Positions 13,444-63,280 of a stretch of 64,000 nt of DNA are shown here, in pieces. The notes beneath the pieces are model-generated. The model searched no databases, was not told where the DNA came from, and worked only from the letters and a program-made list of their open reading frames with translations. Every line of letters starts with the position of its first letter. Positions within the stretch are counted from its first letter, which is position 1. The translations under genes and the position numbers were made by a program. The DNA comes from Spirochaetia bacterium (GTDB lineage: Bacteria; Spirochaetota; UBA4802; UBA5550), in assembly GCA_009885955.1 (NCBI GenBank), contig VFJS01000022.1, positions 51 to 64,050 of the forward strand. The letters are read 5' to 3'.

Positions 13444-13475
13444 TATGCATTTTTAAATGTGAAAGAAGGCGTTAT

Positions 13476-16770: not shown

Positions 16771-18306
16771 ATGATCGATAAAGAAGAACTGCGCAGGCGG
16801 GCAGAAGAGATCGCCCGGAAAAAGACCGACCGGTTTTCAGAAGACTCTGAGGCCCTGTCTCCGGAAAAAATCCGCCAGGCGATCCACGACCTTCAGGTGC
16901 ACCAGATTGAGCTGGAGATGCAGAACGAGGAACTGCGCCGGTCGCAGGAGAAACTGAATGCCTCACGGGCGCGGTATTTCGACCTCTACGACCTGGCGCC
17001 CATAGGGTATATCACCCTCAGCGAAACAGGGCAGATACTTGAGGCTAACCTCTTCGCGGTTGCGCTGCTCGGGGTGACCCGGAGCTCGCTGGTAACGCAG
17101 TTTCTGACCGCCTTCATCTTTAGGGAGGATGAGGACATCCACTACCTCAGCTCCAAATTGCTTCTTAAGTCTGCCAAACCGCAGACATGGGAACTGAGGA
17201 TGGTTAAAAAAGACGGGACACTATTCTGGGCGAACCTTGACGGGAACATCGTGAGGAATGAAATGGGCGAGACCCAATTCCGTATCATATTGAGCGATAT
17301 TTCCGGGCGTAAGGAGATGGAGGCTGCGCTTAACGAGAGGGCAAAAGAACTGGCATGTATTTCGGCAGTGCGCGCTGAAACCCAGAATAATCTTTCCGAA
17401 GAGGATTTCTGCAGAAAAGTTATTGCACTCTTAATTCCCGCCATACAGTTCCCCGAATTTGCCTTTCCGGTAATTGATCTGGATGGACAACAGTTTGCCC
17501 CAGGTACAGCAGCGGGAAAGGTACATCAATACCTCTCTGCCGGAATTAAATTGGGTAATGAAAATACCGGTGAGCTGAGGGTGTACTACACTGCGGAATT
17601 GCCTTTTATCATCCCCGAGAAACATAATTTAATTGATACAGTTGCAGTTTCCATAGGGCTTTATCTCATGGGCTTGCGCGCCGGTGAAAAAATAAAATCA
17701 CTCCTCGATGAAAAGGAGTTCATCCTCAAAGAGGTGCACCACCGCATAAAGAACAACATGAGTACCATAAAAAGCATCCTTGCCCTGCAGGCCATGAAGT
17801 TGAATGAACCTGCGGCACAGGCTGCGCTCAATGATGCCGGGAGCCGGGTCCAGAGCATGATGGTCCTTTACGATAAACTCTTCCTGGCTGAAAGATACAG
17901 CGACATGCCGGTCAGGATGTATCTGCCGGCTCTCATAGATCAGATTTTGGCCAATTTCCCCGAAAGCTCGAGATTAAATATTGAAAAAAATGTTGATGAT
18001 TTTATCCTCGATACAAAAAGACTCTCCACCCTGGGGATCATCATAAACGAGCTCCTCACCAATATCATGAAATATGCCTTTGCTGATGGAGTTGATGGAA
18101 TGATAACGGTATCTGCTTCATTAAAAGACAACCGCGTCACAGTAATAATACAGGACAACGGCAGGGGAATTCCGGTAAAGACCGGTAATGAAAAACCCGG
18201 GGGTTTCGGCTTCACGCTCATATCAATCCTGGTTAAACAGCTGAACGGGACAATGAAGATTGAATCTGAAAAGGGGACAACGGTTGTTCTGGAATTTCAG
18301 AAATAG
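16771..18306 (+). CDS. PAS sensor histidine kinase of the HisKA_2/HWE type
   Basis: N-terminal coiled coil plus PAS (HQIELEMQNEELRR...YDLAPIGYITL). A small ELACIS... sensor-like module follows. HisKA_2 H-box EVHHRIKNNMSTI and HATPase_c (NELLTNIMKYAF, DNGRGIP, GFGFTLI). Confidence 0.85.
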   Translation: MIDKEELRRRAEEIARKKTDRFSEDSEALSPEKIRQAIHDLQVHQIELEMQNEELRRSQEKLNASRARYFDLYDLAPIGYITLSETGQILEANLFAVALLGVTRSSLVTQFLTAFIFREDEDIHYLSSKLLLKSAKPQTWELRMVKKDGTLFWANLDGNIVRNEMGETQFRIILSDISGRKEMEAALNERAKELACISAVRAETQNNLSEEDFCRKVIALLIPAIQFPEFAFPVIDLDGQQFAPGTAAGKVHQYLSAGIKLGNENTGELRVYYTAELPFIIPEKHNLIDTVAVSIGLYLMGLRAGEKIKSLLDEKEFILKEVHHRIKNNMSTIKSILALQAMKLNEPAAQAALNDAGSRVQSMMVLYDKLFLAERYSDMPVRMYLPALIDQILANFPESSRLNIEKNVDDFILDTKRLSTLGIIINELLTNIMKYAFADGVDGMITVSASLKDNRVTVIIQDNGRGIPVKTGNEKPGGFGFTLISILVKQLNGTMKIESEKGTTVVLEFQK

Positions 18307-18354
18307 GTATTGCATAAAGTGCATTAAGAATAATTAATATCATTAAGAGGTTTT

Positions 18355-19596
18355 ATGGCTGATACAAGAATTTTAATCGTCGATGACGATTCAATAACAA
18401 AAGATATACTCAAAGAGATAATAAAAAATGACGGCTTTATTCCTGTGCTGGCTTCTAACGGCAGGGAGGCGATGGACCTGATCAAAAAGGAGCCCTTTCT
18501 CATTATAATTACTGATATTGAAATGCCTGTCATGGATGGGAATGAACTTATCACACTGATCAGGGAAATTGACAGGGACGCCATTATTATTGTTTTAACA
18601 AGCCACAGCGAGTTGGAGCTGGTTATCGATATAATGAAAAAGGGGGTATATGATTATATCATAAAGCCTATTGAACAGGGTGAAATATTGATGAAGATTG
18701 GGAGAGCCTATGAAACAGCCTGTCTCAGGAAAACAGTAAAAGTGCGTGAAAACGAAAAGGTGGCAAGGCTTGAGAATCAGTTGAACTGGCTAAAATGGAA
18801 TGAACAGATTTTAAGGCGCGATTTTGACCGAATTGACAGCACACTGTTTAAGAGCCTTCACACAAGCTTCAATCAGGGCGCCGGGTTCGGCTCTATCCTG
18901 ACACTTATAAATATTGTATCTTCAACGGCTGTAAAAGAAGGAAAAAATTATCTCATTGACGCTGAAGTATTCGATATGATAAAATACAGTTCCGATTTAG
19001 CATTTAAAACCATCGATGTTTTTGCATCAATAAACAACATAATATCAAATAAATTTCAATTTAAAACCATGTCCCTGGAGGACCTCCACGAATTGTTGAA
19101 TTACACAATTATAAAGCTTTCCAAATACAAAAAGATGAAGAATCACACAATACTCATAAGTGATAAAAAAAGCTTTTTTTCGGAAAAAAATGTACAGATT
19201 GAACCGGTCTATTTTGAAGTTGCTTTTACTGAACTATTAGTCAATGCTTTCAAGTTTTCGAAAAAAAACACAATTATAACAGTTATCATGGAGATGGTAG
19301 ACAAAAATTTAGAGTTATCTGTCATAAGTGATCCTGAACCGGGGCCCGGGAAAATAATCGGTATACCGGAGGAATATCAGAATCTCATATTTGAACCATT
19401 TTTCAGGATGGCTAATAATGTTTACGAAGATTATCAAGCTCTGGATTTTGGCCTTGGGCTGGTAACGGTGAACAAAATTGTTTTAAAACATAATGGCACC
19501 ATTAAGGTGTATAATGCGAAAGATCATTCTAACATTGAATCTGATCCTGTAATTAAAGTGGATTTCACAGTTTCTCTACCCTTTATTAGCAGCTGA
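18355..19596 (+). CDS. Response-regulator receiver fused to a histidine-kinase-like ATPase domain
   Basis: Receiver (ILIVDDDSIT, IIITDIEMPVMDG, IIKP). C-terminal HATPase_c-like boxes (ELLVNAFKFS, IFEPFFRM, GLGLVTVNKIVLKHNGTI). No canonical H-box; only a weak candidate (FKSLHTSFNQG). Confidence 0.75.
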   Translation: MADTRILIVDDDSITKDILKEIIKNDGFIPVLASNGREAMDLIKKEPFLIIITDIEMPVMDGNELITLIREIDRDAIIIVLTSHSELELVIDIMKKGVYDYIIKPIEQGEILMKIGRAYETACLRKTVKVRENEKVARLENQLNWLKWNEQILRRDFDRIDSTLFKSLHTSFNQGAGFGSILTLINIVSSTAVKEGKNYLIDAEVFDMIKYSSDLAFKTIDVFASINNIISNKFQFKTMSLEDLHELLNYTIIKLSKYKKMKNHTILISDKKSFFSEKNVQIEPVYFEVAFTELLVNAFKFSKKNTIITVIMEMVDKNLELSVISDPEPGPGKIIGIPEEYQNLIFEPFFRMANNVYEDYQALDFGLGLVTVNKIVLKHNGTIKVYNAKDHSNIESDPVIKVDFTVSLPFISS

Positions 19597-19832
19597 GGAG
19601 GTATTAAATATGAATATAAGAAGTAGTTTTCATATACTATCAAATGTTTAATGGTATTTTTACAAATTTAATTTAATTGAGCTCTTAATTTTTTTTCAAG
19701 CATAAAGCACTCAATAAAAAATTTTTTCCACGCTTTGAGCCATATTTCACACATCGTTAAAAACGCTACAGAACACTACTGTACATTCCGAGATATAATA
19801 GGAGTAGACTTCAAATTTTTATAGTTTTTTAA

Positions 19833-19861
19833 TTGACACTGAATAATGAATGTACTGAAAT
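19833..19861 (+). promoter_or_regulatory. Candidate sigma70-type promoter for the 7-gene operon
   Basis: TTGACA (19833-19838), a 17-nt spacer, then TGAAAT (19856-19861), about 95 nt upstream of the ATG at 19956 in a 359-nt AT-rich gap. Motif match only. Confidence 0.3.
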
Positions 19862-19955
19862 ACTCGAAGTTATAATGTTTATTTTAATATATAATTTTTG
19901 AAATATATACAAATGGCGTTCTAACATAAATTTTCTTAATGCAGGGTAAAGCTGG

Positions 19956-21308
19956 ATGACATTCACCTATGTAATGATTTTTTCTTTTTGCATCATACTC
20001 GGTTTCATAGCTTTCTATATAATCAATTCAGTGGTTATGCCGAAAAAGATCGATGAAATAGCCAAAATGATTGATATCGGCCAGGCCAAGGCCGCGATAA
20101 AAAAACTGAACGAAATGATCGAAAAGGATGACCACAACCCCTTTGCCCATTACCTTCTGGCCAGGGCTTATGTTATTGAAGGAAACAGCCAGTACGGCAT
20201 TGTGGAATACAGGCAGGTCCTCAAGTTCGGCAGGTTTGATGAACGGATGCGTGAGGCTGACATCCGTAGGGCGCTGGCGAAAATGTACATGGATAAAAAA
20301 GCCGTGGAAGAGGCAAAAAAGGAGTACCTTATATTGACCAAGATTGAGCCGAACAATTTTGAGAATTATTTTGAATCGGGCAGGATATTTTTTAACACGA
20401 ATGTTTATGACAAGGCAATCGGCTTTTTTAAAAAAGCCGTCTCATTGAATGACCAGAATGAAGAGTCCTTTTATTACCTGGGCCAGATTTACTACAGAAA
20501 TAACATGCATCCCGAAGCAAAACAGATGCTCACAAATGCGGTGAAAATAAATCCTAAAAATTACAAGGCGCACTATTTTCTGGGGCTTGTGCTCAGGCAG
20601 ATGAATGATTACGAGTGGGCCATCAAGGAATTTGACACTGCCGAGAAAAGTGACGACCTGAAAGTCAAGTGCTATCTGGCCAAGGGGTCATGCTACCTGG
20701 AGAAGGGCGGCTTTCCCAAAGCCATACAGGAATTCGAAAAGGGCCTCAAGTATGTGAGGAAAGGGACTGAAACCGAGCTCAACCTCAGATATTTTCTTGC
20801 CGAGTGCCATGAAAAGATGAGGGATATTCATTCGGCCATTGTGAACTGGGAGAGGATTGTAGAGGTGAACCCCAAGTTCAGGGATGTCAACGAGAAGCTT
20901 AGGAATTTTTCCGAGTTCAGGCAGGATGACCGGATCAAGGACTTCATGATTGCAGGCCTTTCACAGTTTGAGCACATGTGCAGAAAAATGGTCCAGGCTA
21001 TGGGTTTCAACATCAGTGAAATTGAAATAATCAGCGATACGGAAATAGAAATGATAGTCACGGAGAGCGAAGGAAAGTGGAGAAACGCAAGGCAGACAAA
21101 CAGGATAGTCAGGATCAACAGGACCACGGAGAAGGTTAGTGAAAGTCTGCTCAGGAAACTCCATGAATCAATGAAATTGAAGAATTCAACAAGGGTTATG
21201 ATGATAACCACCGGAGAATATTCGTCAAAGGCCGTGGAATTTGCAAATACCAGGCCCATAGACATATTGAGTAAATCCGACCTTGTTGACATTCTGAAGA
21301 AAATTTAG
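19956..21308 (+). CDS. Membrane-anchored TPR protein with C-terminal Mrr-like (PD-(D/E)xK fold) domain, apparently degenerate
   Basis: N-terminal TM helix (VMIFSFCIILGFIAFYIINSVV). About 8 TPR-like repeats (AHYLLARAYV, YYLGQIYY, AHYFLGLVL...). The C-terminal roughly 125 aa align by eye to the Mrr_cat pattern (FEHMCRKMVQAMGF...SDTEIEMIV...RIVRINR...VMMITTGEYSSKAVEFA...IDILSKSDLVDIL). Confidence 0.7.
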   Translation: MTFTYVMIFSFCIILGFIAFYIINSVVMPKKIDEIAKMIDIGQAKAAIKKLNEMIEKDDHNPFAHYLLARAYVIEGNSQYGIVEYRQVLKFGRFDERMREADIRRALAKMYMDKKAVEEAKKEYLILTKIEPNNFENYFESGRIFFNTNVYDKAIGFFKKAVSLNDQNEESFYYLGQIYYRNNMHPEAKQMLTNAVKINPKNYKAHYFLGLVLRQMNDYEWAIKEFDTAEKSDDLKVKCYLAKGSCYLEKGGFPKAIQEFEKGLKYVRKGTETELNLRYFLAECHEKMRDIHSAIVNWERIVEVNPKFRDVNEKLRNFSEFRQDDRIKDFMIAGLSQFEHMCRKMVQAMGFNISEIEIISDTEIEMIVTESEGKWRNARQTNRIVRINRTTEKVSESLLRKLHESMKLKNSTRVMMITTGEYSSKAVEFANTRPIDILSKSDLVDILKKI

Positions 21309-21323
21309 AAAGTTCCTGACCAG

Positions 21324-23138
21324 ATGAACGCTATCGAAAAATTAATCCGCGAAATACCATTTTTCAGACATTTTACTTCGTCGGAAATATCCCAGTTTTT
21401 CACCATTGGACGGCTGTCCCAAATCAGGAAGAATCAGGTCATTGATTTGAAGAAGACCAATTCTTTTAACCTCGTTGTAAAGGGGATTTTTGAATCGGAA
21501 AATGCCGGGAAAAAGGATGTTGTGTATATCACTTCGGGATCTTTTTTCGGGACCATACCTTTTTCAGAACAGTCACAGCGCGGGACGTTAAGGGCGCTAT
21601 GCGACTCAACGCTTCTGATTTACGGTGAGGAGGAGCTTTACAGATTTTTTCTTGGATCATGGAAGGGGCTGCGGGGATATATCAGAAGCATTGAGAAACT
21701 GGGCTTCAATGTATCCCCGGCAGGGAGAAAGTATTTCGGGGAGAACAGCAGAATCATTTCCGTTTACGGCAATGCCCCGTCATGCGGAAAATCATTTATG
21801 GCTTCAGTGCTTGGAATGGCCATGGCAAAATCCGGCAGGACAATAATTCTCGACCTTTCCTATTCCGGAAGTTCCATTTTTAATATATTTGATAAAAAGA
21901 TAACATCGCCCCTATCGCAGAAGCAGGTTGACGGGCCATCTATCGAAGAGTTAATCCATAGCAGAATAGTGGAAGTGAGTGACACCCTCCATCTTATAAA
22001 CATCTCCTTCGGGTCAAAGGTAAAGGTCAATCCGGCAATTCTATCGCCTGTCCTCTTTGTCCTGTCAAAGTCATACCGGTATATCTTAACCGACCTGTCG
22101 GATTATGACAGCAGTTTACGAGACCGGGCTTTTGAACTTTCTGATATCATATTTTCCATTGTGGGGAGGAAGAAATATGCCTCCATTGCCCATGATATGT
22201 TTAATTCAAGGCTGGTGGATGCCCAGAGAGTATTCTATACGGCAAATGAACATGTGACCGGCAGGATGAAGATATATGATGGCGGCCTTATTTTGCAGAA
22301 ATATACTATCAGCCCCGGAGATAACCAGCTGGAACAGCTCGGGCAGATTAGCGCCGGGGAAAACATATCCCGGTTTGTACATGTCATTACTGAAAAAAAA
22401 AGGGCTCTGATTTTCGAAACTTCGCTTCTTGAATCTGTATATTATGCAGGTTTTTTAAGCGCCTCTGAAATGAGCGGACAGAAATTCAACTATTTCTACT
22501 CCTCGTCATATGGGTATATCCTGATGGTGCTTTACATCGTGAGCAGGGATATCGGGGAGTTCAAGAAAAGGGTAGTTGAATTTTTTTCCGAGCGCAGGAT
22601 AAATAACCTCCTTGAAATTGTCTTTCCCGAGCAGCATATCTTTAAAAAGGACAGGCTGATGAAATATTCCGCGGAATTGTGCGGTGAGAGCCGCATTGAA
22701 AATTTTAAAACTATACCGGTGGCAAAACTCATGAACAGCGCAACAGGGTCATCCAGGCTTTTCAGCACCGGTCTGCTGAAGGAGATTTTTGCCTCATCAT
22801 TCCTCATATATCCGGCTTTTGAGCCTCAGAAGCTGGGTTCTGAATATTTTGATTCCGGTTACCCCCTGAACAGTGTTCAGGTTGAAGACATGTTCAGGAG
22901 TGATATTGATGAAATAGTTCATGTGTCGGTAAACAGCAGTGAAACAATGGAGTTTAAGAATGAGAGGGTCCTTAATTTTTATAAAAAATATATTGATAAT
23001 CTCTCTGCAATGAAATTTGCAGGGAAAGTGGGGACTCTTGCAGACAAAAATATAGTTATTGACGCTTCTGAAAAGAAATTAAAAGTTGAAAAAATAATAG
23101 AAATATCGGAAAAGAGTTATCATAAGAATATTTTATGA
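21324..23138 (+). CDS. Three-module protein: cNMP-binding-like, MinD/ParA-like P-loop and patatin-like domains (motifs degenerate)
   Basis: Residues 1-110 resemble a cyclic-nucleotide-binding fold (IPFFRHF...FFGTIPF...RGTLRALCDSTLL). The central segment is IISVYGNAPSCGKSFMASVLGMAMAKSGRTIILDLS, with a Walker-B-like YRYILTDLS. The C-terminal half resembles patatin (ALIFETS in place of GGG, SSSYG in place of GxSxG, FDSGYP in place of DGG). Confidence 0.6.
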   Translation: MNAIEKLIREIPFFRHFTSSEISQFFTIGRLSQIRKNQVIDLKKTNSFNLVVKGIFESENAGKKDVVYITSGSFFGTIPFSEQSQRGTLRALCDSTLLIYGEEELYRFFLGSWKGLRGYIRSIEKLGFNVSPAGRKYFGENSRIISVYGNAPSCGKSFMASVLGMAMAKSGRTIILDLSYSGSSIFNIFDKKITSPLSQKQVDGPSIEELIHSRIVEVSDTLHLINISFGSKVKVNPAILSPVLFVLSKSYRYILTDLSDYDSSLRDRAFELSDIIFSIVGRKKYASIAHDMFNSRLVDAQRVFYTANEHVTGRMKIYDGGLILQKYTISPGDNQLEQLGQISAGENISRFVHVITEKKRALIFETSLLESVYYAGFLSASEMSGQKFNYFYSSSYGYILMVLYIVSRDIGEFKKRVVEFFSERRINNLLEIVFPEQHIFKKDRLMKYSAELCGESRIENFKTIPVAKLMNSATGSSRLFSTGLLKEIFASSFLIYPAFEPQKLGSEYFDSGYPLNSVQVEDMFRSDIDEIVHVSVNSSETMEFKNERVLNFYKKYIDNLSAMKFAGKVGTLADKNIVIDASEKKLKVEKIIEISEKSYHKNIL

Positions 23139-23175
23139 AATTTCATACATAGCGGATTTTCTGGAGGTTTATCCG

Positions 23176-23676
23176 ATGAGGTCAAGATCGACAAATGTCA
23201 TGCAGGGGGCTGTTTTAATTACCGGCCTTGCCTACATCATCATAGGGATTCTACTGTATGTATCGCCACTCTGGGTATTGAAATTTTTTGTAGAAAACAT
23301 ATCAGAAAACTGGCTTGATCTTGTAAGGGATAATGAGCTCGTGGCGCCTCTTTATAATATTACCCGCGGCTTTTCCGCGCTCCTTTTTACTTCAGGGTTT
23401 GCCATGATAATGCCGCTTTTTGATCCCCTGAAATACAGGGGCCTGATTTTTTATAACGGCCTTGTATTCCCTTTATTTTCATCAATTATATTTATTTATT
23501 CAATTATTTCAGGGAAAAAAGGGGGCTCAAATGTTGCCAGGGCGTCTGTTGAATCTTCGGGGCAGGAGGTCCATTCGATTATTGTAATTCTTGGAATTGT
23601 TTTTTTATGTATAATGATTATCAATGCGATTGGACTTATAATGACAAAAAAAGAGGCGCGGGAAGGGACGGAATAG
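23176..23676 (+). CDS. Small integral membrane protein (about 4 TM helices), unknown function
   Basis: GGAGG Shine-Dalgarno 7 nt upstream. Four hydrophobic stretches (e.g. AVLITGLAYIIIGILLYV, FSALLFTSGFAMIMPLF, LVFPLFSSIIFIYSII, IIVILGIVFLCIMIINAIGLI). Confidence 0.6.
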   Translation: MRSRSTNVMQGAVLITGLAYIIIGILLYVSPLWVLKFFVENISENWLDLVRDNELVAPLYNITRGFSALLFTSGFAMIMPLFDPLKYRGLIFYNGLVFPLFSSIIFIYSIISGKKGGSNVARASVESSGQEVHSIIVILGIVFLCIMIINAIGLIMTKKEAREGTE

Positions 23677-23743
23677 TTTTTTGATTGAAAAATCTATTAT
23701 GGACTATTATATTAGTCAGATATTATAGGTCAAGGGAGTTTCT

Positions 23744-24085
23744 ATGGAATTAAGATCACAAAAAAACGGAAATGCAATCATCATATTCCTCGAGGGAAGG
23801 CTTGATGTACACCTTTCAGCCGAGGTTGAAAAGGGGATAACCAGCCTTGTCAGTAAAAATCCCAATGATAATTTTATCCTGAATCTGAAGGATGTGGAAT
23901 ACATGAGCAGTTCCGGTTTGAGAATTTTCGTTTCAACCATGAGGGTCCTAAAAGAGACAAAAAGGCTTTTGAAATTATCGAATATGAATTCAGCAGTAAA
24001 AAAAATTTTTGAAGTTGTGGAATTAATTGATATGTTCGACATTTATGATACCGATGAACAGGCTTTAAAAGCCTTGCAGAAATAA
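23744..24085 (+). CDS. STAS-domain protein (SpoIIAA-like anti-sigma-factor antagonist)
   Basis: 113 aa. Typical STAS layout: IIFLEGRLDVHLSAEVE...ILNLKDVEYMSSSGLRIFV...LKLSNMNSAVKKIFEVVELIDMF. The phosphorylatable-Ser motif (SSSGL) is retained. Confidence 0.85.
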   Translation: MELRSQKNGNAIIIFLEGRLDVHLSAEVEKGITSLVSKNPNDNFILNLKDVEYMSSSGLRIFVSTMRVLKETKRLLKLSNMNSAVKKIFEVVELIDMFDIYDTDEQALKALQK

Positions 24086-24108
24086 CATAGTACCGGCAGC
24101 CCGTCCAA

Positions 24109-26316
24109 TTGAAATTTCGTAATGAAAAGGTCAGTCCCCAATCGCATCTTGCAGTACTGTCAGATTTTGTCAGGGACAATTTTAATATTGAAAAGCTTCT
24201 TTTAACCGGGAATGAATTAAGCGAAGGTCTGGAGAATTTTTTAAGATTTCAGAAATATCCAAATTACCGGTGGCCTGCCTGGGTGGAGATGAACGCCGGG
24301 GGTAAAACCGGCTCGTCCTATGGTATTACCCACCCTTTATTGATAAATAATATTTTAGGCCATTCGCTTTCATTTTCAAATTCCATATCAAAAGATGAGA
24401 TTTATATAGAACCTTCAGGGGGAATATCCCTCTCCTATGGAGCATGGTCCCTTGAATTCTGGATTCTACTGGGGGATACATTGTACAGGCCCCAGGAAGA
24501 TCCCGGGGAAGTCAGAATTAAGAGGGACCCGGCTACTTCCATAGTCGAAATTGTCTGGAAAAATAAGGTCATGCAGTTAAAGCAGATAATTTACGGCGCA
24601 AGGAGCAATACTGATGAGGCTGTCATTGAATCTGAATGCACTCTCAATACTCCAGGCAGGGACGCCCATCTCATTATATCAGTGAGGCCTTATAATAACC
24701 GGAAAATCGGCGGGCTCAATGTCATTGAATTCAATAAGTCGGCCCGCGTGATGAAAATAAATGACCGAAAATCCCTGGCTGTTGATGATAAGCCGGAATT
24801 TATAAATGCAGGCAACGGTGAGGCCGGAGATGTAGTACTGAACACGGGACATGACGTGTCTGGAATAGTATGTAAAAAAGGGATGGCTTCCATGTCCCTT
24901 GGATACAAACTTAAAAAAGGGGCAAACAGCATCTATGTCCGTTTATCACTTGACTCGCATGGCGACCTTTCCCACGGGAAAATTGATTTCACCAGGCTGA
25001 AAAGGGATTACATTGATTTTTCTAAATTTAGAATTAATTCAGGGATGAACCTTTCTACTCCGGATTCAGAATTTAACTCCTGGTTCTATGCATCCAAATC
25101 TTCTGTGCTTAATTTTCTGGACAAGGAGGCCTTCCTTGATCAAGATATTGATTCTTTCGACTGCAGAAAGATTTTTTACATGATATTCGGATTTAACAGA
25201 ATGGGATATGTTACTGAATCCAAGAAGTACGTAGACCTCATAATTAGCAAATATATTGTGAATGAAAAAAATATGAATTTCAGCTCCGCCAATGATGTTT
25301 TTTATATCATCAATTCCTTTGCCGATTATTTTATTCACACAAGGGACCTGGACTATCTGCAGCTGAACTATCTTGAAAGGCTGAAAAAATTCGGTACCTG
25401 CCTGTTTAAATATTCTTCTACGATAAAAAAGGTGGAGGACCTCGGTACAAATACCATAGATGAACGATACATGAAAGAGCCGAGATATGATGATTTGATT
25501 CTCATGGCCTATTCCCTTTATCAATTTTCCTATCTGGCGCGGTGCCTGGGCATTTTTGATGATGAAAAGAGGTTCATGAAGGAATATGAGAGGATTGAAA
25601 ATATATTTTTAAAATATGCCGGTGAATATGAAAGCAGGTATTTTCCCGACGAGTTTTTTTATTATGACCTTCAGTCGGCATATCCTTTCAGAATGGAAAA
25701 TATTACCGGTGATATTACTAAATCAATGATAGAGAGAATAATAAAACACTTCAACGCAGATCTTCTGCATAATAAATCCCTGGGCTTCGATATTTTTCCG
25801 AGTATCATTTTTATCACGAATCTCATTATACAAAAAGACTCCAGAGCAATTGAAATTATCAGGAAGCTGTTTCAATATGGCGGAGAAAACTATTCCCTTC
25901 CTGAATTCATAAATCCGTCTACAGGGAAGGGGGGCAGGGGAAGGGGAGCGTCAAAACTTATAAGCTCACTTATATTTTCCATGATCAGGAATTTCATCTT
26001 TATTGATACAAAGGAGAGGCTTGATATTTTTCCTGTTCCGGTTGAAAGCTGGTTTAAGCCCGGGGTGAACATTATAGTTGATGATGCGCCATCCAGGTTC
26101 GGCAGGATTAATTTTAATGTAAAGACAACCTCCAATGAAATACAGTTTTATTTTAATAAGCTGCCGAAATATATTCCGCCTGATATCATGATAAATCTCC
26201 CATTTAAAGTTGAAATTGTGGAGGGTGATGATTTTATAGTAAAAAAAATAGTCAATAATACCTTTATCATACATGGCTGGCCCGCTCTTGTCCGTTTTTT
26301 GAAAAAACAGCATTAA
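24109..26316 (+). CDS. Large hypothetical protein (735 aa); C-terminal half possibly an (alpha/alpha)6 toroid
   Basis: Long ORF with coding-like composition, 23 nt after the STAS gene. TTG start, which is uncertain. Only a weak by-eye resemblance to debranching-enzyme/GH-like C-termini (YSLPEFINPSTGKGGRG). No catalytic motif recognised. Confidence 0.5.
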   Translation: MKFRNEKVSPQSHLAVLSDFVRDNFNIEKLLLTGNELSEGLENFLRFQKYPNYRWPAWVEMNAGGKTGSSYGITHPLLINNILGHSLSFSNSISKDEIYIEPSGGISLSYGAWSLEFWILLGDTLYRPQEDPGEVRIKRDPATSIVEIVWKNKVMQLKQIIYGARSNTDEAVIESECTLNTPGRDAHLIISVRPYNNRKIGGLNVIEFNKSARVMKINDRKSLAVDDKPEFINAGNGEAGDVVLNTGHDVSGIVCKKGMASMSLGYKLKKGANSIYVRLSLDSHGDLSHGKIDFTRLKRDYIDFSKFRINSGMNLSTPDSEFNSWFYASKSSVLNFLDKEAFLDQDIDSFDCRKIFYMIFGFNRMGYVTESKKYVDLIISKYIVNEKNMNFSSANDVFYIINSFADYFIHTRDLDYLQLNYLERLKKFGTCLFKYSSTIKKVEDLGTNTIDERYMKEPRYDDLILMAYSLYQFSYLARCLGIFDDEKRFMKEYERIENIFLKYAGEYESRYFPDEFFYYDLQSAYPFRMENITGDITKSMIERIIKHFNADLLHNKSLGFDIFPSIIFITNLIIQKDSRAIEIIRKLFQYGGENYSLPEFINPSTGKGGRGRGASKLISSLIFSMIRNFIFIDTKERLDIFPVPVESWFKPGVNIIVDDAPSRFGRINFNVKTTSNEIQFYFNKLPKYIPPDIMINLPFKVEIVEGDDFIVKKIVNNTFIIHGWPALVRFLKKQH

Positions 26317-26473
26317 AGAGAGTTCAGTTAATCTGAATTTTCATCACCCTTTATATTTATTTAGAAATTTTATCATCTGTTATGTCGAAAATTAATTATA
26401 CTGCGGTTTCTATCTTGTAAGCTGTCAAACTGCTGTTAAAATATATGAATTATCCGGTTATACGGTAGATAAA

Positions 26474-28051
26474 ATGCTTTTTCAATATCTGGTTCCAGTT
26501 ATAATAATTTTAGCATTTATTGTGTATTATCTATATTATGTCGCACCCCGCAGAAATCCCCTGAACAGGGCCCGGAATTTCATTAACCAGAAAATGTTTG
26601 ATGAAGCAATTATAGAATATAAAAAAGCCCTGGACAGAAATCCGTCGGATTTTACCACGCATTACAGGCTCGGGAACCTCTATCTCTCCCTTAACAAAGT
26701 GGACCAGGGAGTCCTTCATCTCCAGGAGGTTTTAAAAATCAACAAGTTCAGCGTTGAAGTTGAAAAAATTGATATATTAAAAAATCTTGCCAGGTCATAT
26801 CTCCAGAGAGATGAGATAGAGGAAGCCTTCCAGATCCATATTGATATTTTAAACATATTCCCCAATGATGAGGAATCACTCTACCATGCGTCATTCATTG
26901 CGCTGGGGCAGGAGATGTTTGAGATGGCCAACAGGTATTTTGACAGGCTTGTAAAAATAAGCAGCAGGGATTTTAATATTTTTTTCGGCGCAGGAATGGC
27001 CAGTTTCCAGGAGCAGAAACTCACCGAGGCCATACATTATTTCAAGGAGGCATTAAATCTAAACGCCTATTCTGATATTGGAAATATATGCGCTGCCTAT
27101 GCCCAGCAGAATAAAAGCGATTATAAGAGCGCGATAAATCATACCAGGATGGTTATAGACAACACTACCGATGTGAATGCGAGCTTCATAGCCCAGAGGC
27201 TCCTCGGATATATCCTTGTAAAAGGCGGAAGATATAGTGAATCGGAGAAGGTCTTTCAGTTCCTGCTTGAATTCTGCAAAAAAAATTACCTGGATGATGA
27301 ATTGGCCCCGGTATTATATGATCTCGGCTTTGTATCAATCAAAGGAGAAAAAACAGACAAGGCCTATGAGTACTGGAACCAGGCATATCAGCACAACAGG
27401 AATTTCAGAAATCTGCAAAAGCTGATAACCATGCTGAGGAAGGAGATGGATAAGGCAACAGCGCAGAAGTCTGATATTCAAGCCATCACCATCGAAGAAC
27501 AGGTGAATGAATGGCACAGGGATTTTTTCCCTGAAGATTTCATTTGGAAAATATGCGGTTTAAAGAGCCAGTATGAAATCGACATCAGTAAAATCCGGAT
27601 CCCTTCAAAGGCAGGGGCCGGGAAAAAATCAACTGCAGGTAATTCTGACGGGAAAATTGAAGCTGTTCAGAGCGAAATTTTAAATAAATACCAGGATATT
27701 GATGTTGAGAACTTCAGAATTATATCAAGCAGGGTTCTGCTCAAACTGGGTTACGATGTTGATGAGATTCTGAATACGTACAAGGATTTTGACGGAGTGG
27801 ATTTTCTTGCCCATGCCACAACTAGCGGCAAAACCGTTCTTGTATGGGTCAGAAGATGGAAGGATACGGTTGTCGGCGAAATACCGCTTCGAAATTTTGC
27901 CCAGGCGATAAATGATATGAAAGCCAGCGAGGGAATTTTTATCACCACAAGCGGCCTGAGCGGGCCTGCTGAAGCATCACTCAAGAATCTGGTCAAGGTG
28001 AAGGTTATCACACCTGACCAGATGTCCGGTGTCCTTGCCGGTCTTCTTTAA
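26474..28051 (+). CDS. Membrane-anchored TPR protein with C-terminal Mrr-like (PD-(D/E)xK fold) domain; paralogue of 19956..21308
   Basis: N-terminal TM helix (YLVPVIIILAFIVYYLYYV) and TPR repeats. The C-terminus fits the Mrr_cat pattern (LLKLGYDV...DFDGVDFLAH...TVLVWVRRWK...PLRNFAQAI...GIFITTSGLSGPAEASL...VKVITPDQMSGVL). Confidence 0.7.
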   Translation: MLFQYLVPVIIILAFIVYYLYYVAPRRNPLNRARNFINQKMFDEAIIEYKKALDRNPSDFTTHYRLGNLYLSLNKVDQGVLHLQEVLKINKFSVEVEKIDILKNLARSYLQRDEIEEAFQIHIDILNIFPNDEESLYHASFIALGQEMFEMANRYFDRLVKISSRDFNIFFGAGMASFQEQKLTEAIHYFKEALNLNAYSDIGNICAAYAQQNKSDYKSAINHTRMVIDNTTDVNASFIAQRLLGYILVKGGRYSESEKVFQFLLEFCKKNYLDDELAPVLYDLGFVSIKGEKTDKAYEYWNQAYQHNRNFRNLQKLITMLRKEMDKATAQKSDIQAITIEEQVNEWHRDFFPEDFIWKICGLKSQYEIDISKIRIPSKAGAGKKSTAGNSDGKIEAVQSEILNKYQDIDVENFRIISSRVLLKLGYDVDEILNTYKDFDGVDFLAHATTSGKTVLVWVRRWKDTVVGEIPLRNFAQAINDMKASEGIFITTSGLSGPAEASLKNLVKVKVITPDQMSGVLAGLL

Positions 28052-28057
28052 AATTTT

Positions 28058-28993
28058 ATGAACAGCTATACATCAGTACCAATAGAAACCATTGATTTCA
28101 CCGATACCTATTTTAACATAAGCAGGCATTGCAGCGATGATCGTTTGATCCGGTCTGTGGAAGATTTCGGGATACTTGTTCCTCCTGTTCTCCTGAAAAA
28201 AGGGAGCATGTTCAGGATAATTTCCGGACATAACAGGCTGCTTGCCATAAGGGAGCTGGGCAGTGCCAGTGTCCGCTCTGAAGTTTGTGATGATGTAACT
28301 GCGGATATGTTTATAAAGTTTTTTCTGCTTAAAAATTACAGGAATGAAATCGGGCCAATCGGCAGGATAAAATTCATTCATATACTTTCAGATTTTTTCA
28401 TGATGAAAAGTCCTATAGAATCGCCAGTATTAAAAAAAAGTCTTGGCATCCCTGCCGAAATTATATCTGACGCATTCATTATCCCTAAAATACTGGCATT
28501 GCCTGAATCATTAAGAAATTATCTGGATATGAATAATGTGAATTTCAGGATAATACGGGAATTATGCACAATGAGTTTGGCAGGCGCAGAATTGCTTGAT
28601 CAGTGGGTGAAATCGGGGCTCGTCAGGCAGAATATTTTCAAAAAAATATGCGATATGTATTATGATATCCTTTCACGCGATGGCGGCAGTGATGTTCTTG
28701 CTGACATCCAAGTGAAGTCCTTTGATGAAAAAAGGAGGTATGATGAGTCGCTTTTCAATGAGATATTCAGAATAAGATATCCTGAATATTCAGCCCTATG
28801 GAGAAGGGCCGGAGAAATTATGGACAGGGTCAATAATGATAAAATCAGGGTTAGTGTCCCGGAATATTTCGAGGGTGAGTGCCTGGAACTTGCTATAAGA
28901 ATCAGAAGAGATGAGGATCTTTTGTTATTGGAGAAGAGGGTAGATGAGCTGCTGTCCGGGGAATACCTGCCGCAGCTCCTCAATATGATTTGA
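28058..28993 (+). CDS. ParB N-terminal-domain (ParB/Srx fold) protein
   Basis: Starts 6 nt after the previous stop. The N-terminus matches the ParB-like nuclease domain pattern (VPIETIDF...LIRSVEDFGILVPPVLLKKGSMFRIISGHNRLLAIRELG). The remaining roughly 200 aa are not recognised. Confidence 0.65.
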   Translation: MNSYTSVPIETIDFTDTYFNISRHCSDDRLIRSVEDFGILVPPVLLKKGSMFRIISGHNRLLAIRELGSASVRSEVCDDVTADMFIKFFLLKNYRNEIGPIGRIKFIHILSDFFMMKSPIESPVLKKSLGIPAEIISDAFIIPKILALPESLRNYLDMNNVNFRIIRELCTMSLAGAELLDQWVKSGLVRQNIFKKICDMYYDILSRDGGSDVLADIQVKSFDEKRRYDESLFNEIFRIRYPEYSALWRRAGEIMDRVNNDKIRVSVPEYFEGECLELAIRIRRDEDLLLLEKRVDELLSGEYLPQLLNMI

Positions 28994-29015
28994 CCGCTGT
29001 GAGACAATCAGGATT

Positions 29016-29822
29016 TCAGGGCCACGGTTTCCAGTCGCCCCAGTTCCTGTAATACTCCCTGAATGCCGGAACCTCTTCCTGCCTGGACTCAATCATTTTT
29101 TTTGCCGCCTCAACAATATCATGTTCCCTGGCGACTGATATATCTCCGGTCATCACCCTGGTTCTCAGGAAAACAAAATAGGTATCAAGCACATCCTGGA
29201 TGCAGTATTCATTTATTTCCTTATTCATTCCCTTGAGGTTCATTTCATAGACGTCCTCACCCTTGGTTGTCCCTTTGCCCGGTTTGCCGATTATTTTTGC
29301 CAGGAGGTTGAGCCCCCCGTTCATTTTTATTGATCCGTAATTGGAGAGCCAGTCCTGGAGATCGATATGCTTATCGCTGAACCTGTTCCTGCCGGCATAT
29401 TTATCCTTGAAGTGCCTTTTTGCCTTTTGCCCGTACCTGTATGCCATCAGTTCCATCAGCGGTATATCGAATCCCCTTCCGTTGAAAGTTACGATTACTG
29501 AATTTTTGTAAAGGTTTTCTATGCCGTGCCAGAATAATCTGGTCATTTCAGAGGCCCTGAAGAGGGGTTCATCGAGCGATACTATTTCCTGTATGGTGAA
29601 ATCTTCCAGTATTTTTGCGATGCATACAGAAACTGGATACTGGAATGTGACCGGTATGAATGTTGATTTACCGTTTGTTGATTCCAGAATCTCTTCCTGA
29701 AATTTTAGTACAGCTGTATTTTCGTCTATATCATCGCCGGGAAATTTGACGGATTTTATGAGCCTTGAATCCGGAACCGATTCCACATCAATGACTAAAT
29801 ATTTGATCTCTTCATAATTCAT
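29016..29822 (-). CDS. Predicted 3'-5' exonuclease related to the PolB exonuclease domain (RNase H-like fold)
   Basis: DEDDy-like motifs are present: YLVIDVES (ExoI), VTFNGRGFDIPL (ExoII) and YCIQDVLDTYFVFL (ExoIII). Start moved to the ATG at 29822 (MNYEEIKYLVIDVES). Confidence 0.7.
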   Translation of the reverse strand: MNYEEIKYLVIDVESVPDSRLIKSVKFPGDDIDENTAVLKFQEEILESTNGKSTFIPVTFQYPVSVCIAKILEDFTIQEIVSLDEPLFRASEMTRLFWHGIENLYKNSVIVTFNGRGFDIPLMELMAYRYGQKAKRHFKDKYAGRNRFSDKHIDLQDWLSNYGSIKMNGGLNLLAKIIGKPGKGTTKGEDVYEMNLKGMNKEINEYCIQDVLDTYFVFLRTRVMTGDISVAREHDIVEAAKKMIESRQEEVPAFREYYRNWGDWKPWP

Positions 29823-29836
29823 TGCCAACCTCAAAT

Positions 29837-29871
29837 AAAAAGCATGTTACTGAAAAGGTAACATGCTTTTT
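29837..29871. terminator. Perfect 14-bp hairpin with flanking A/T runs (bidirectional terminator-like)
   Basis: aaaaagcatgttac / loop tgaaaag / gtaacatgcttttt. It lies between the minus-strand HEAT gene and the exonuclease gene. Confidence 0.6.
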
Positions 29872-29904
29872 CACCTTGATTTACCTTAATGTATCGCGGA
29901 AAGT

Positions 29905-30351
29905 TTATTTTTTTGCTTTCTCTTCCATTTTTTTTAGAATGTCTTTTATGTAGGGGTCGGTCTCTTTTTCCTTCGACTTCTGCCATGCATCTATCGATTT
30001 TTTGGAGCCTATCCTGAAAGAAGAGAGAATAGCGGCATATCTTACATTGGTGCTGGCATCATTAACCAGGAGATTGTTTACTGTCTCAACCGAATTTTCG
30101 TCACGGATATATCCCAGCGCCATTACTGCATGGAGCCTAACATTTTCCCTGCTGTCTTTGCAAAGCTCAACCAGTTTTTGAACTGCATCCTTCTCTTTTG
30201 CATTGCCGAGCCAGTCAGCTGCAGCCACAATCAGCTTTTCATCTGCCGAGGCCAGATCACCGATATAATCCTTAGCATTTTTCTGTTTTTCCTGCCCGTA
30301 AAGTCCAACTGATAATATTATTGCCGTTAAGGTAAGAATTATTTTTTTCAT
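29905..30351 (-). CDS. Secreted HEAT-repeat protein
   Basis: Signal peptide (MKKIILTLTAIILSVGLYG). HEAT/PBS-lyase-type repeats (AADWLGNAKEKDAVQKLVELCKDSRENVRLHAVMALGYI, NVRYAAILSSFRIG). Confidence 0.7.
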   Translation of the reverse strand: MKKIILTLTAIILSVGLYGQEKQKNAKDYIGDLASADEKLIVAAADWLGNAKEKDAVQKLVELCKDSRENVRLHAVMALGYIRDENSVETVNNLLVNDASTNVRYAAILSSFRIGSKKSIDAWQKSKEKETDPYIKDILKKMEEKAKK

Positions 30352-30809
30352 ATTTTTCTCCTTGTTTTAAGAAAGTATTTTTTATCAATAAATCATGTCA
30401 TTCGGGGGGGGTGATTTTCCCCAAAATTTGCGACATGAAGTGAACTGCCTGTTTCAGTTATTCGATGTTCCCTTATGTTAAAATGATAATTAATGATAAT
30501 AAATAACTTATGATTCGTTATGTAATCTTTTTTATCATATATACCAAATTATGTCAATTATTTTATAAAAAAACAGATAAAACCCAATACTACATTAAAA
30601 AATGCCATGGTGAAACTGAACAAAATAGATTCAAATTATAGATTATATGGGGATAAATACTGATTTTTTCTTTTTTTTGAGTCTTCATAAGAATCTCCTG
30701 ATTTAATTATTCGAGGATCCAATAATAAAATTCTTTACATAATTATATGATAAGGATTTTTATTGATTTTTGATTTATTACTTTCTATAATTAATATTGA
30801 GGACACTTT

Positions 30810-32255
30810 ATGAAAGAACAGACCGGATCTTCTGAAAATAATGAATTTGCCGATATGCTCGAGGAGTCAATATCAAATGCATATGAATTTCAGCCGGGCG
30901 ACAGGGTAAATGGTACGGTTGTTTATTTCAGCAATGAATATATTTTTATTGATATTTCCGGGAAGAGCGAAGCAATAATTGACGCTTCTGAATTCAGGGA
31001 CAAAAAGGGGAACATGACAATAAAGGCGGGAGATCCCGTTGTTGCCTTTGTCGTCAGTACAAGAGGGGATGAAAAGAGGCTCTCATCAAAAATCGGCAGA
31101 GGCTTTATCAGCCCTGAAATCCTCCAGATAGCCTATGATCATTCTCTTCCTGTTTACGGTATCCCGGGAAAATTCCAGAAGGGGGGGTATACGGTTTCCG
31201 TCTCCTCAATAGAATGTTTCTGCCCTTTGTCCCAGATCGATATCAAGGTCCCGGCAGACAGGGATATCTACCTCAACAAGGAATACCAGTTTAAAATCAT
31301 CGAATATAAAGAAGGGGGCAGAAACATTATAGTATCGAGAAAAGCCCTCCTTGAAACTGACAGGAAGGTCAAGGTTGAGAGATTCAAAAATGAACTCAAA
31401 CCCGGCGACATTGTGAAAGGAAGGATTATTACAATTCATGACTTCGGCATTTTTGTAAAGATCGATGACACGCTTGAGGCCCTTGTTCCCAGGTCTGAGA
31501 TTTCATGGGCCAGGAATTCTGGCCTTGAAGCCTATACCCCCGGGCTCGAGGTCGAGGCAATAGTTCTGGCGCTGGACTGGGAAAAGGAAAAAATAACCCT
31601 GAGCATAAAACAGAACAGCCCCAATCCCATAGACTCTTTAGAAAAATACAGGGAAGGTGAAACATACAACGGCAGGGTCGTGAACATGATAAAGGCAGGG
31701 GCTTTCATTGAACTGGAGCCCGGCATCGAGGGCTTTCTCCATGTTTCCAGGATGAGCAGGTCCAGGAGAGTTGCTTCCCCCGGTGACATCCTGGCTGCAG
31801 GGGACCCGGTGAACGTCAAGGTGAGCAGCATTGACCTTGTGAAGAAACAGATTTCCCTGGAGCTGGTGACCGGTGAACCGGACCCATGGCTCCTGCCTGC
31901 CGAAGCGCTCATGGAAACTGTGCATAAAGGAATTATCGAAATAAGCCAGCATAATGGAATCAATGTAAGGCTGGAAAATGGTATGATCGGTTTTGTCCCG
32001 AAGAAGGAACTGTTGAAACAGTCCGGGGATATTCAGAGCGGTTATCCGTCGGGAAAGGAGATTTCGGTCATCATAATCCAGATAAAGAAGGAGACGAAAG
32101 GGCTCATCCTGAGTGAATCCGGGGCGTCTTCACAGATTGACAGAAAGGAGTATGAAAAGTACCAGGGCATCACAACCGGTTCCGCTTCAGCTACACTGGG
32201 AGATCAGCTGAAGAACAAATTCATTGATATACAGAAAAAGATGACGAGAGATTAA
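30810..32255 (+). CDS. Multi-S1-domain RNA-binding protein (ribosomal protein S1-like)
   Basis: The N-terminus parallels S1 (FADMLEES...PGDRVNGTVV...IFIDISGKSEAIIDASEF). There are several further S1/OB repeats (GDIVKGRIITIHDFGIFVKI, GETYNGRVVNMIKAGAFIEL, GIIEISQHNGINVRL). At 481 aa it is shorter than typical RpsA. Confidence 0.8.
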   Translation: MKEQTGSSENNEFADMLEESISNAYEFQPGDRVNGTVVYFSNEYIFIDISGKSEAIIDASEFRDKKGNMTIKAGDPVVAFVVSTRGDEKRLSSKIGRGFISPEILQIAYDHSLPVYGIPGKFQKGGYTVSVSSIECFCPLSQIDIKVPADRDIYLNKEYQFKIIEYKEGGRNIIVSRKALLETDRKVKVERFKNELKPGDIVKGRIITIHDFGIFVKIDDTLEALVPRSEISWARNSGLEAYTPGLEVEAIVLALDWEKEKITLSIKQNSPNPIDSLEKYREGETYNGRVVNMIKAGAFIELEPGIEGFLHVSRMSRSRRVASPGDILAAGDPVNVKVSSIDLVKKQISLELVTGEPDPWLLPAEALMETVHKGIIEISQHNGINVRLENGMIGFVPKKELLKQSGDIQSGYPSGKEISVIIIQIKKETKGLILSESGASSQIDRKEYEKYQGITTGSASATLGDQLKNKFIDIQKKMTRD

Positions 32256-59276: not shown

Positions 59277-59288
59277 AGGCATCGGATT

Positions 59289-60689: not shown

Positions 60690-60712
60690 ACGTAATTTAA
60701 TAGAGGGAATTT

Positions 60713-61177: not shown

Positions 61178-61178
61178 A

Positions 61179-61568: not shown

Positions 61569-61604
61569 TTCCTGATATAATGACAGGATTTTTGGAGGCA
61601 TAAT

Positions 61605-62213: not shown

Positions 62214-62257
62214 ACAACAGCAGCCTGTACAGTATATGAAGCAGTATCCAGTTTGTT

Positions 62258-63273: not shown

Positions 63274-63280
63274 GAAAAAA

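Follow-up and report, generated by a model that had tools for sequence, protein, structure and literature searches.

A seven-gene operon of uncultured Leptospirales-like Spirochaetota encoding ParA/MinD-like, ParB-like, STAS and glycosidase-like proteins

The 64,000-nucleotide stretch analysed here (the window: positions 51 to 64,050 of contig VFJS01000022.1, assembly GCA_009885955.1, from a Spirochaetia bacterium) carries seven co-directional genes, called g1 to g7 below, at positions 19956 to 28993 of its forward strand. We established that these genes form a functionally linked, vertically inherited and lineage-restricted operon of uncultured Leptospirales-like Spirochaetota. The link, already put forward in an original prediction made from the letters alone, follows from three observations: the order of the genes is conserved, the gaps between them are short or give way to overlaps, and their products co-diverge.

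To follow the operon across genomes, one genome was taken per GTDB species, which gave 49 loci, all from uncultured Spirochaetota and many of them labelled Leptospirales, and the seven window proteins were searched by BLAST against all the open reading frames (ORFs) of these loci. Genes g1 to g7 were found in the same order and the same orientation in 39 of the 49 species-level loci, at 25-72% identity, a co-occurrence far beyond chance. Among the ten remaining loci, four were cut by a contig end, five carried g3 to g7 only and one carried g1 to g5 only. The g3-g4-g5 set was missing from none of them, g3 being present in all 46 loci whose sequence reaches its position, and g1+g2 or g6+g7 were absent from the locus as pairs. 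Since the loci have either g3 to g7 or g1 to g5 and none is without g3 to g5, the operon has g3-g4-g5 as its core, to which g1+g2 and g6+g7 are joined as separable arms. In the window the successive genes are separated by 15, 37, 67, 23, 157 and 6 nt, all within the range of 6 to 157 nt described originally. Over the loci, the median gap between g1 and g2 is 13 nt, that between g4 and g5 13.5 nt and that between g6 and g7 5 nt; g4 and g5 overlap in some loci and g6 and g7 often do.

Two local variants of the operon were seen. A clade of loci (L002, positions 6775-9030, and likewise L019 and L023-L026; L numbers are our labels for the loci) is without g1 and g2 at the locus, and carries in their place, upstream of g3-g7, a second STAS gene whose product is 31% identical to g4 and a gene for a 597-aa coiled-coil lipoprotein, in which we read a LysM-like segment. 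This last gene was considered as a diverged g2 and rejected, its product being a lipoprotein with a coiled coil. In one sub-clade (L047, positions 5426-5755, also L049, L051, L020 and L028, and probably L017 and L045), a 109-aa coiled-coil gene, which in L047 lies 20 nt before g1, replaces the promoter-bearing gap; the window has no counterpart of it, and it may be an eighth member of the operon in that sub-clade.

The seven proteins are not equally conserved. Median identity to the window proteins was 64% for g4, 61% for g1, 45% for g6, 41% for g3, 40% for g2, 36% for g5 and 33% for g7, to be compared with 45% for the neighbouring S1-domain protein and 63% for the neighbouring exonuclease; g1 and g4 are thus more conserved than the S1 neighbour. 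The pairwise distances of g2, g5, g6 and g7 correlated with each other and with those of the S1-domain gene (Spearman coefficients of 0.77-0.91). For the operon as a set, the coefficients with S1 span 0.65-0.91. Protein searches of plasmid and phage collections with g2 and g5 returned no relatives. Taken together with the synteny of the locus, these results agree with the view, held from the start, that the genes are not a mobile defence island. The PolB-exo2, HEAT-repeat and S1-domain genes found downstream in the window (29016-32255) are syntenic with the operon in about 30 loci, their order and orientation being rearranged, and they served as a marker of vertical inheritance; the upstream flank of the operon differs between loci.

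The boundaries of the operon are those of the original prediction. The AT-rich gap of 359 nt that precedes g1 (19597-19955) contains the sequence TTGACA-N17-TGAAAT (19833-19861, forward strand), a consensus match that makes it a sigma-70-like promoter candidate, 95 nt before the g1 ATG when counted from the end of the motif. A pattern of this type, TTGAC[AT]-N16-18-T[AG]nnnT, precedes g1 in 18 of 39 related loci, compared with 2.7% of random 310-nt windows. Downstream, the operon converges on the gene of a PolB-exo2 3'-5' exonuclease carried by the reverse strand (29016-29834). No terminator-like hairpin was found in the intergenic gaps of the operon, every terminator-like match lying inside an ORF. 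Two further promoter-like pairs, TTGAAA-17-TATATT in the g3-g4 gap (23685-23713) and TTGTAA-16-TAAAAT, which is TG-extended, in the 157 nt between g5 and g6 (26415-26442), could be internal promoters, which would fit the modular g3-g5 / g6-g7 structure. As had been noted, neither integrase nor repeats are visible: Rfam and repeat scans of the locus gave no Rfam element, riboswitch, bounding repeat or mobile-element boundary, and no integrase was found at the locus or in its flanks.

We then looked at the products, beginning with g2 (21324-23138, 604 aa). This protein had been read as a fusion of a cyclic nucleoside monophosphate (cNMP)-binding-like domain, a ParA/MinD-like P-loop domain and a patatin-like domain, and we placed these at residues ~1-126, ~140-330 and ~355-600, respectively. 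As a single sequence, g2 gave only sub-threshold Pfam matches to cNMP_binding and Patatin. A profile made of 41 sequences matched, over three consecutive regions, PlpD (2e-14), the Borrelia PF-32 ParA protein (9e-10) and the cyclic-nucleotide-binding (CNB) domains of PKA-R (8e-8); it also matched ParA, MinD, Soj and VpsO. The AlphaFold2 model of g2 (predicted local distance difference test, pLDDT, 89.6; predicted TM-score, pTM, 0.90) led by Foldseek to PlpD (E 1.7e-9), CapE, patatin, ParA, PF-32, FlhG, Wzc and CNB domains, so that family profile and model agree on the proposed fusion.

The state of the three g2 domains is quite different. In the central domain, of the ParA/MinD class, the Walker A G-K-[ST] is near-invariant: G155 is invariant, the lysine is replaced by Thr or Arg in four of the orthologues listed, and residues D177 and D257 are invariant. 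The orthologues read x-x-x-x-[SCA]-G-K-[ST], with neither Lys nor KGG ahead of GK[ST]. In the patatin fold, the Gly-rich loop, the GxSxG motif and the DGG motif are replaced by ETSLL-type, [YT]S[SA]xxx and [NDWH]SG[YF] sequences, and for this reason we rejected the possibility that g2 is an active patatin lipase. The phosphate-binding cassette (PBC) of the CNB domain, including its arginine, is not conserved and is degenerate. From its residues, g2 is thus probably an active P-loop switch held between two degenerate ligand-binding folds. Like the cNMP-patatin phospholipases (NTE/PlpD, and CapV/CapE of the cyclic-oligonucleotide-based antiphage signalling systems, CBASS), it has a CNB domain upstream of a patatin fold; unlike them, it has no conserved oxyanion loop, GxSxG or DGG aspartate, its PBC is degenerate and a P-loop domain is inserted. 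Two distant relatives of 671 aa with the same CNB, ParA/CbiA and patatin architecture, P0083 and P0084 (L053, positions 10001-12016), keep the lipase motifs as GVGAAYG, GSSIG and DGG, and also the CNB motif that g2 has lost. They lie in a context unrelated to the operon, with GH1 and YjeF_N neighbours, and may represent a catalytically active ancestral form of g2. The gene downstream of P0084 was tested as a g3-like candidate and rejected.

The last gene, g7 (28058-28993, 311 aa), had been described as encoding a ParB-N-domain protein. Its product alone matched nothing in Pfam and gave a sub-threshold Noc/ParB match in NCBIfam. The family gave a clearer answer: a 31-sequence profile matched chromosomal ParB/Spo0J with an E-value of 1.3e-9, 16 of the 31 orthologues reached ParB_N, and g7 aligned with Noc over residues 29-189, a span that we take to include the helix-turn-helix (HTH) of Noc. 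In g7, a nucleotide-binding fold at the N-terminus is followed by a middle region that is HTH-like and by an acidic C-terminal domain of unassigned type. The GERRxRA box, which in ParB is the arginine patch that binds CTP, reads G-H-N-R-L in g7, R60 being near-invariant, and the ENLQR box reads K-N-Y-R-N-E. The profile also gave weak matches to SerK and SbnI, two serine kinases that are likewise housed in the ParB/Srx fold.

Genes g1 (19956-21308, 450 aa) and g6 (26474-28051, 525 aa) had been predicted to encode paralogous proteins with a transmembrane (TM) segment, tetratricopeptide repeats (TPR) and an Mrr-like C-terminus, and all three elements were detected. Hydropathy gave one N-terminal TM segment in each protein (residues 1-30 in g1). 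This segment is directly followed by basic residues, PKK in g1 and PRRNPLNRAR in g6, which by the positive-inside rule places the rest of both proteins in the cytoplasm. In Pfam, TPR families matched both, and Mrr_cat was matched above its gathering score by g1 (E 3.7e-13) and g6 (E 3.9e-12). The two proteins are collinear from residue 1 (E 3e-14) and their C-terminal domains are related by hhalign. The length of g1 is kept within 449-452 aa in at least 120 protein clusters, and the top 120 matches listed in a full-length search were close orthologues only.

If the Mrr fold is kept in these two proteins, its active site is not. At the position of the (E/Q)xK motif, which was placed by eye against the Mrr consensus, g1 reads V-R-I-N-R (consensus R-I-x-R), invariant among orthologues, as is the motif EGKWRNxRQxNRxxR. 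In g6 the DGVD sequence is retained and the QxK site has become W-V-R-R-W-K, again invariant among orthologues. Because the catalytic lysine is replaced by Arg or Asn, cleavage by g1 or g6 is unlikely, and their C-terminal domains, similar to the Mrr type IV restriction enzymes by their Mrr_cat matches and different from them at this residue, are best described as conserved and apparently catalytically dead nuclease folds; the possibility of an active Mrr nuclease was rejected for both. These losses, together with those of the patatin loop, GxSxG, DGG and CNB cassette in g2, account for the catalytic motifs that had been called eroded. The closest analogues of the two C-termini are inactive restriction endonuclease (REase) domains: g1 gave a weak Pfam match to NA-iREase1, and the profile of the g6 domain gave a marginal match to the N-domain of Rpb5, an inactive restriction-endonuclease fold. 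For the g1 C-terminal domain, a single-sequence search of the PDB found nothing and a profile search was likewise uninformative, as was the calculated isoelectric point of the domains with regard to DNA binding.

Turning to the core, g3 (23176-23676, 166 aa) had been predicted to be a four-TM protein, a reading that is partly confirmed: the product is a polytopic membrane protein, but hydropathy resolved only three hydrophobic blocks (residues 7-40, 89-114 and 128-159), where we read four helices from the letters. It has two conserved motifs, PLFDPL(K/R)YRG and a basic/acidic tail, TRKxAKxGxE, both of which we would place on the cytoplasmic side, the first of them in a loop. A weak DUF4345 match was obtained for 5 of 20 orthologues, and a profile search with g3 gave no match in the PDB.

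The assignment of g4 (23744-24085, 113 aa) as a STAS antagonist retaining the phosphorylatable SSSGL motif was firmly supported, with a Pfam STAS match at E 1.1e-17 and an NCBIfam match to TIGR00377, 'anti-sigma factor antagonist', of 78.1 bits for a cut-off of 53.45. The motif YMSSSGLRIFV is conserved across 47 sequences (residues at ≥80-95%) and contains, within SSSGL, the predicted phospho-acceptor Ser57. As in partner switching (SpoIIAA/RsbV with the kinases RsbW/SpoIIAB and a PP2C phosphatase), g4 is therefore a bona fide SpoIIAA-type STAS protein with a conserved phospho-acceptor motif. The surroundings are different. The absence of a partner kinase or PP2C phosphatase, noted originally for the window, held for the 44 larger window ORFs that were scanned, seven ORFs at 58350-63991 lying outside the scan. 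No GHKL kinase or PP2C was found in the annotated orthologous loci L001-L003 either, neither the operon nor its flanks showed a sigma factor, and the conserved neighbours of g4 are a small membrane protein and a glycosidase-like protein.

This last protein, g5 (24109-26316, 735 aa, TTG start), had been presented as having no recognisable catalytic motif. This is right in so far as g5 matched neither Pfam nor NCBIfam and none of 16 orthologues out of 16 matched Pfam, but it misses the fold of the protein and a family tied to sugar metabolism. In the AlphaFold2 model (pLDDT 85.8, pTM 0.88), an (alpha/alpha)6 barrel lies between two beta-sandwiches, one N-terminal and one C-terminal. Against the PDB, Foldseek placed first the cellobiose and cellodextrin phosphorylases of glycoside hydrolase (GH) family GH94 (E 9e-15, TM-score 0.56), and then GH95, GH116, GH78 and GH65, at about 10% identity. 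A search of the PDB with the g5 profile gave spurious PPR-repeat matches only, meaning that fold comparison alone was informative. The three-part architecture is that of the six-hairpin glycosidases and phosphorylases (GH94, GH15, GH65, GH95, GH116), from which g5 differs by its identity of about 10%, by the absence of any CAZy-type Pfam match and by invariant motifs of its own subfamily.

A word-indexed search had returned 16 homologues of g5 only, all from metagenome-assembled genomes (MAGs) of Spirochaetota. When the family profile was used in a full HMMER scan of 1.84 billion representatives, 838 relatives were obtained. About 65 of them are orthologues; the others, 770-820 aa long, form a far tier drawn from Spirochaetales, Margulisbacteria and further lineages. 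Far-tier members gave sub-threshold matches to GH95_cat, GH15, GDE_C and GtaA. They adjoin glycosyltransferases of families GT4/GT1 in L054 (8001-11784) and L056 (2458-6276), and in L057 (3014-12653) one of them is part of an operon with a PIG-L deacetylase, PGI, a ROK kinase, an MFS sugar transporter, PfkB and GH1. The polar residues N80, R193, D241, D462 and R627 are common to the orthologues and the far tier, and E116 and D633 show conservative E/D swaps between the tiers. On the strength of the fold, the sugar contexts of the far relatives and these shared polar residues, we conclude that g5 descends from a carbohydrate-active enzyme family; with its 800 or so members, this orphan family resembles a glycoside hydrolase/phosphorylase family that has yet to be classified. 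By contrast with the shared residues, the invariance of YLARCLGIF..E486, D708-F709 and G723-W724-P725 is confined to the operon-linked subfamily. Motifs of this kind (YLARCLGIF..E, GWP) suggest a new interface or specificity, and g5 could have remained an enzyme while gaining surfaces particular to its subfamily.

How could these products work together? Proteins g2, g4, g5 and g7 contain no hydrophobic segment, and as far as the products can be placed from their sequences, all would face the cytoplasm, with g1, g3 and g6 as membrane anchors and the other four as soluble proteins. The P-loop of g2 and the phospho-serine of g4 look active or like switches, as may the barrel of g5 and the nucleotide pocket of g7; both Mrr domains, by contrast, are clearly degenerate, and so are the patatin and CNB domains. 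From the modularity, the tight spacing and the topology, we propose as a tentative working model, possible without being probable, that the operon encodes a membrane-anchored nucleotide/phospho-switch assembly controlling the glycosidase-like g5. The two TPR scaffolds, g1 and g6, would hold g2 and g7 against the cytoplasmic membrane on its inner side. The assembly of g5 on a g3 platform, or its location or activity there, would be gated by the nucleotide-dependent cycles of these two partners and by whether the g4 STAS protein is phosphorylated. As the likely output, g5 would act on a glycoside or glycan, or sense one, in the cytoplasm or close to the membrane. The nuclease, lipase and cNMP modules would be kept as pseudo-enzymes for binding or scaffolding; they may come from domains of conflict systems that settled into a housekeeping role.

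Several points weigh against this working model. Without the signature lysine of the ParA/MinD deviant Walker A box, the nucleotide cycle of g2 may differ from that of ParA or MinD. The use of g4 as a phospho-switch is assumed, the operon, the 44 window ORFs and the three orthologous loci being without a cognate STAS kinase or phosphatase. Protein g5, a putative enzyme, matches no CAZy-type Pfam model. Finally, the dead Mrr domains receive no specific role in the model, although g1 is among the most conserved genes of the operon. A novel, self-contained switch can also be drawn up, in which the STAS protein would be operated by g7, through its ParB/Srx fold, or by g2, through its ParA/BY-kinase-like (bacterial tyrosine kinase-like) P-loop, and not by a GHKL kinase and a PP2C phosphatase, and would control a membrane-associated six-hairpin glycosidase/phosphorylase; g2 and g7 would be held on paralogous TM-TPR dead-nuclease scaffolds, and a domesticated conflict-system toolkit would have become central to envelope or metabolic regulation in one lineage of spirochaetes. 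Taken as one joint claim, this is rather improbable.

The alternative that survives best develops one raised in the original prediction: a membrane-associated tether or positioning module for the nucleoid, in which g2 and g7 would be a partition pair, the dead Mrr domains would bind DNA at the membrane without cutting it, and g3-g5 would be cargo or accessory proteins. The homology is real. By sequence and by fold the g2 ATPase domain matches ParA, PF-32 and FlhG; it has the ParA/MinD (SIMIBI) fold with a Walker A GK[ST] and two conserved aspartates. Protein g7 is homologous to chromosomal ParB/Spo0J and to Noc over the N-domain and the next helical region, and Noc is a CTP-dependent tether between DNA and membrane. 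A membrane connection exists in Noc and MinD as well, each scaffold of the operon is tightly coupled to its ParA-like or ParB-like partner, and the former Mrr active sites are now invariant and Arg-rich (EGKWRNxRQxNRxxR in g1, VRRWK in g6). However, g2 does not have the lysine of the KGGxxGK[ST] signature and its ATPase domain is flanked by a CNB-like domain and a dead patatin fold, g7 has a degenerate sequence (GHNRL) in place of the GERRxRA box, and membrane attachment would have to come in trans from the TM-TPR proteins. No parS-like palindrome stands out in 19500-29100. The g2-g7 pair is dispensable relative to the core: g3-g4-g5 is invariant, either the ParA-like or the ParB-like arm can be absent from the locus, and the STAS and glycosidase-like proteins are left unexplained. 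The positioning module thus stays viable through its ParA/ParB/Noc homology, but fails to account for the invariant core, and we consider it unlikely, while giving it real weight.

The resemblance to abortive-infection and defence architectures, also pointed out originally, is genuine as regards the domain repertoire, since Mrr/iREase, CapE-like patatin, cNMP-binding, ParB-N and TPR domains are typical of conflict systems. A fixed anti-phage or abortive-infection system would have the CNB domain as nucleotide sensor, the patatin and REase folds as effectors, and the ParB-like and STAS proteins as regulators. In its favour can be counted the weak PADLOC matches of g1 and g6 to PDC-S02 and mREase_IV (E 5.5e-6 to 1.6e-7), the weak NA-iREase1 match and the presence of CapE among the Foldseek matches of g2. 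The interpretation itself is disfavoured on several grounds: the effector residues, that is the patatin dyad and loop and the Mrr lysine, are lost throughout the family, and so is an intact phosphate-binding cassette in the CNB domain; the operon has no cyclase or other signal generator, and, unlike in CBASS, no CD-NTase (cGAS/DncV-like nucleotidyltransferase) cyclase domain was found in the seven proteins or the flanks. Each recovered site holds one copy, syntenic and co-diverging with the S1 neighbour, conservation equals or exceeds that of the housekeeping-type neighbours with no sign of diversification, g2 and g5 are without plasmid or phage relatives, and there are no integrases or bounding repeats. 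We therefore regard a defence function as improbable.

A module for envelope homeostasis of the LapB/YciM type was also envisaged, in which the TM-TPR adaptors would present g5 and g2 to, for example, FtsH and so tune lipid or glycan synthesis, the patatin domain being a lipid sensor. Like LapB, g1 and g6 have an N-terminal TM anchor followed by a cytoplasmic TPR array, and nearly the whole TPR region of the NCBIfam LapB models aligned with residues 36-334 of g6 and 142-356 of g1. A patatin fold deprived of its catalytic residues could in addition still bind lipid, and g5 has a carbohydrate-active fold. But the scores, ~21-33 bits, are far under the cut-offs of 363-474 bits, the similarity may be generic to TPR proteins, and where LapB has its defining C-terminal domain, a rubredoxin, we read an Mrr-like domain in g1 and g6. 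LapB orthology of the two proteins was rejected on these grounds, and no lipopolysaccharide (LPS), lipid or protease gene was linked to the operon in the loci inspected, so that a role of this kind appears just as doubtful as one in defence. That the genes are unrelated neighbours held together by slow genome rearrangement in the clade is very improbable indeed, even if the flanking S1, HEAT and PolB-exo2 genes, presumed to be functionally unrelated, are also syntenic in many loci and promoter-like sites are present in the g3-g4 and g5-g6 gaps, for gene order persists where protein identity has dropped to 25-40% and the upstream flank varies, the gaps are very short or overlapping with no terminator-like hairpin between genes, the genes are lost in pairs and not singly, and each paralogous scaffold is tied to a nucleotide-binding partner.

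That no described system has this combination of genes had been stated at the outset, and the searches agree. PADLOC-DB 2.0 gave no significant system match for the seven proteins, only weak matches to generic REase or methyltransferase (MTase) folds (E 1e-4 to 1.6e-7) and none for g2-g5. NCBIfam gave only TPR noise, STAS and the sub-threshold Noc/ParB match, Pfam gave no such system, and literature searches on the domain combination and on inactive REases found nothing relevant. Every protein belongs to a known superfamily, and none of ParABS, partner switching, the cNMP-patatin/CBASS systems, Mrr, the PADLOC systems, the CAZy families and LapB was found with its full set of defining features. 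Because neither a model nor a paper was found for the combination, for the pairing of the scaffolds with ParA-like and ParB-like proteins, or for their link to a core of STAS and glycosidase-like proteins, we rate the cluster as outside the known kinds of system, in composition only; it is known from genes of uncultured MAGs alone.

If the working model is true, the operon would represent a new and apparently core cell-biological module in a large uncultured branch of the spirochaetes, present in at least 49 species-level genomes. A glycosidase-like enzyme would be linked in it to a STAS switch, a ParB/Noc-like protein and an ATPase of the ParA/MinD type, and we found no description of such a combination. 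Nuclease, lipase and cyclic-nucleotide-sensor folds would survive as pseudo-enzymes in a stable housekeeping complex, which would call for caution in domain-based defence prediction, since such folds normally flag phage defence. The analysis also defines seven new protein families, with testable partners in g1-g2, g4-g5 and g6-g7, and gives a first fold-level annotation to an orphan family of about 800 glycosidase-like proteins.

The flanks are made of housekeeping and signalling genes, as originally described, and the remainder of the window reads as ordinary chromosome, with chemotaxis genes, large PAS/GAF histidine kinases, DXS, FolP, CdaA, PdxJ, Lnt, FliF/FliG and tRNAs. Directly upstream of the operon, at 18355-19596, lies a gene for a 413-aa protein with receiver and HATPase_c domains, in which HisKA was undetected; it sits in a GC-poor stretch (GC 0.35 over 18001-20000) and is not kept beside the operon in other loci. 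Further upstream, 7711-16562 encodes a hybrid histidine kinase of 1910 aa, which combines several PAS/GAF domains with two receivers and Hpt, and then a 1028-aa CheB-CheR fusion with C-terminal PAS domains. On the other side, a 349-aa ORF at 46161-47210, without a Pfam match at E ≤ 1e-6, overlaps the start of a folP-like gene. At 48036-49798, a gene for CdaA, a cyclic di-AMP synthase, adjoins a YbbR-domain gene; this pair is unlinked to the operon and may bear on nucleotide signalling in the organism.

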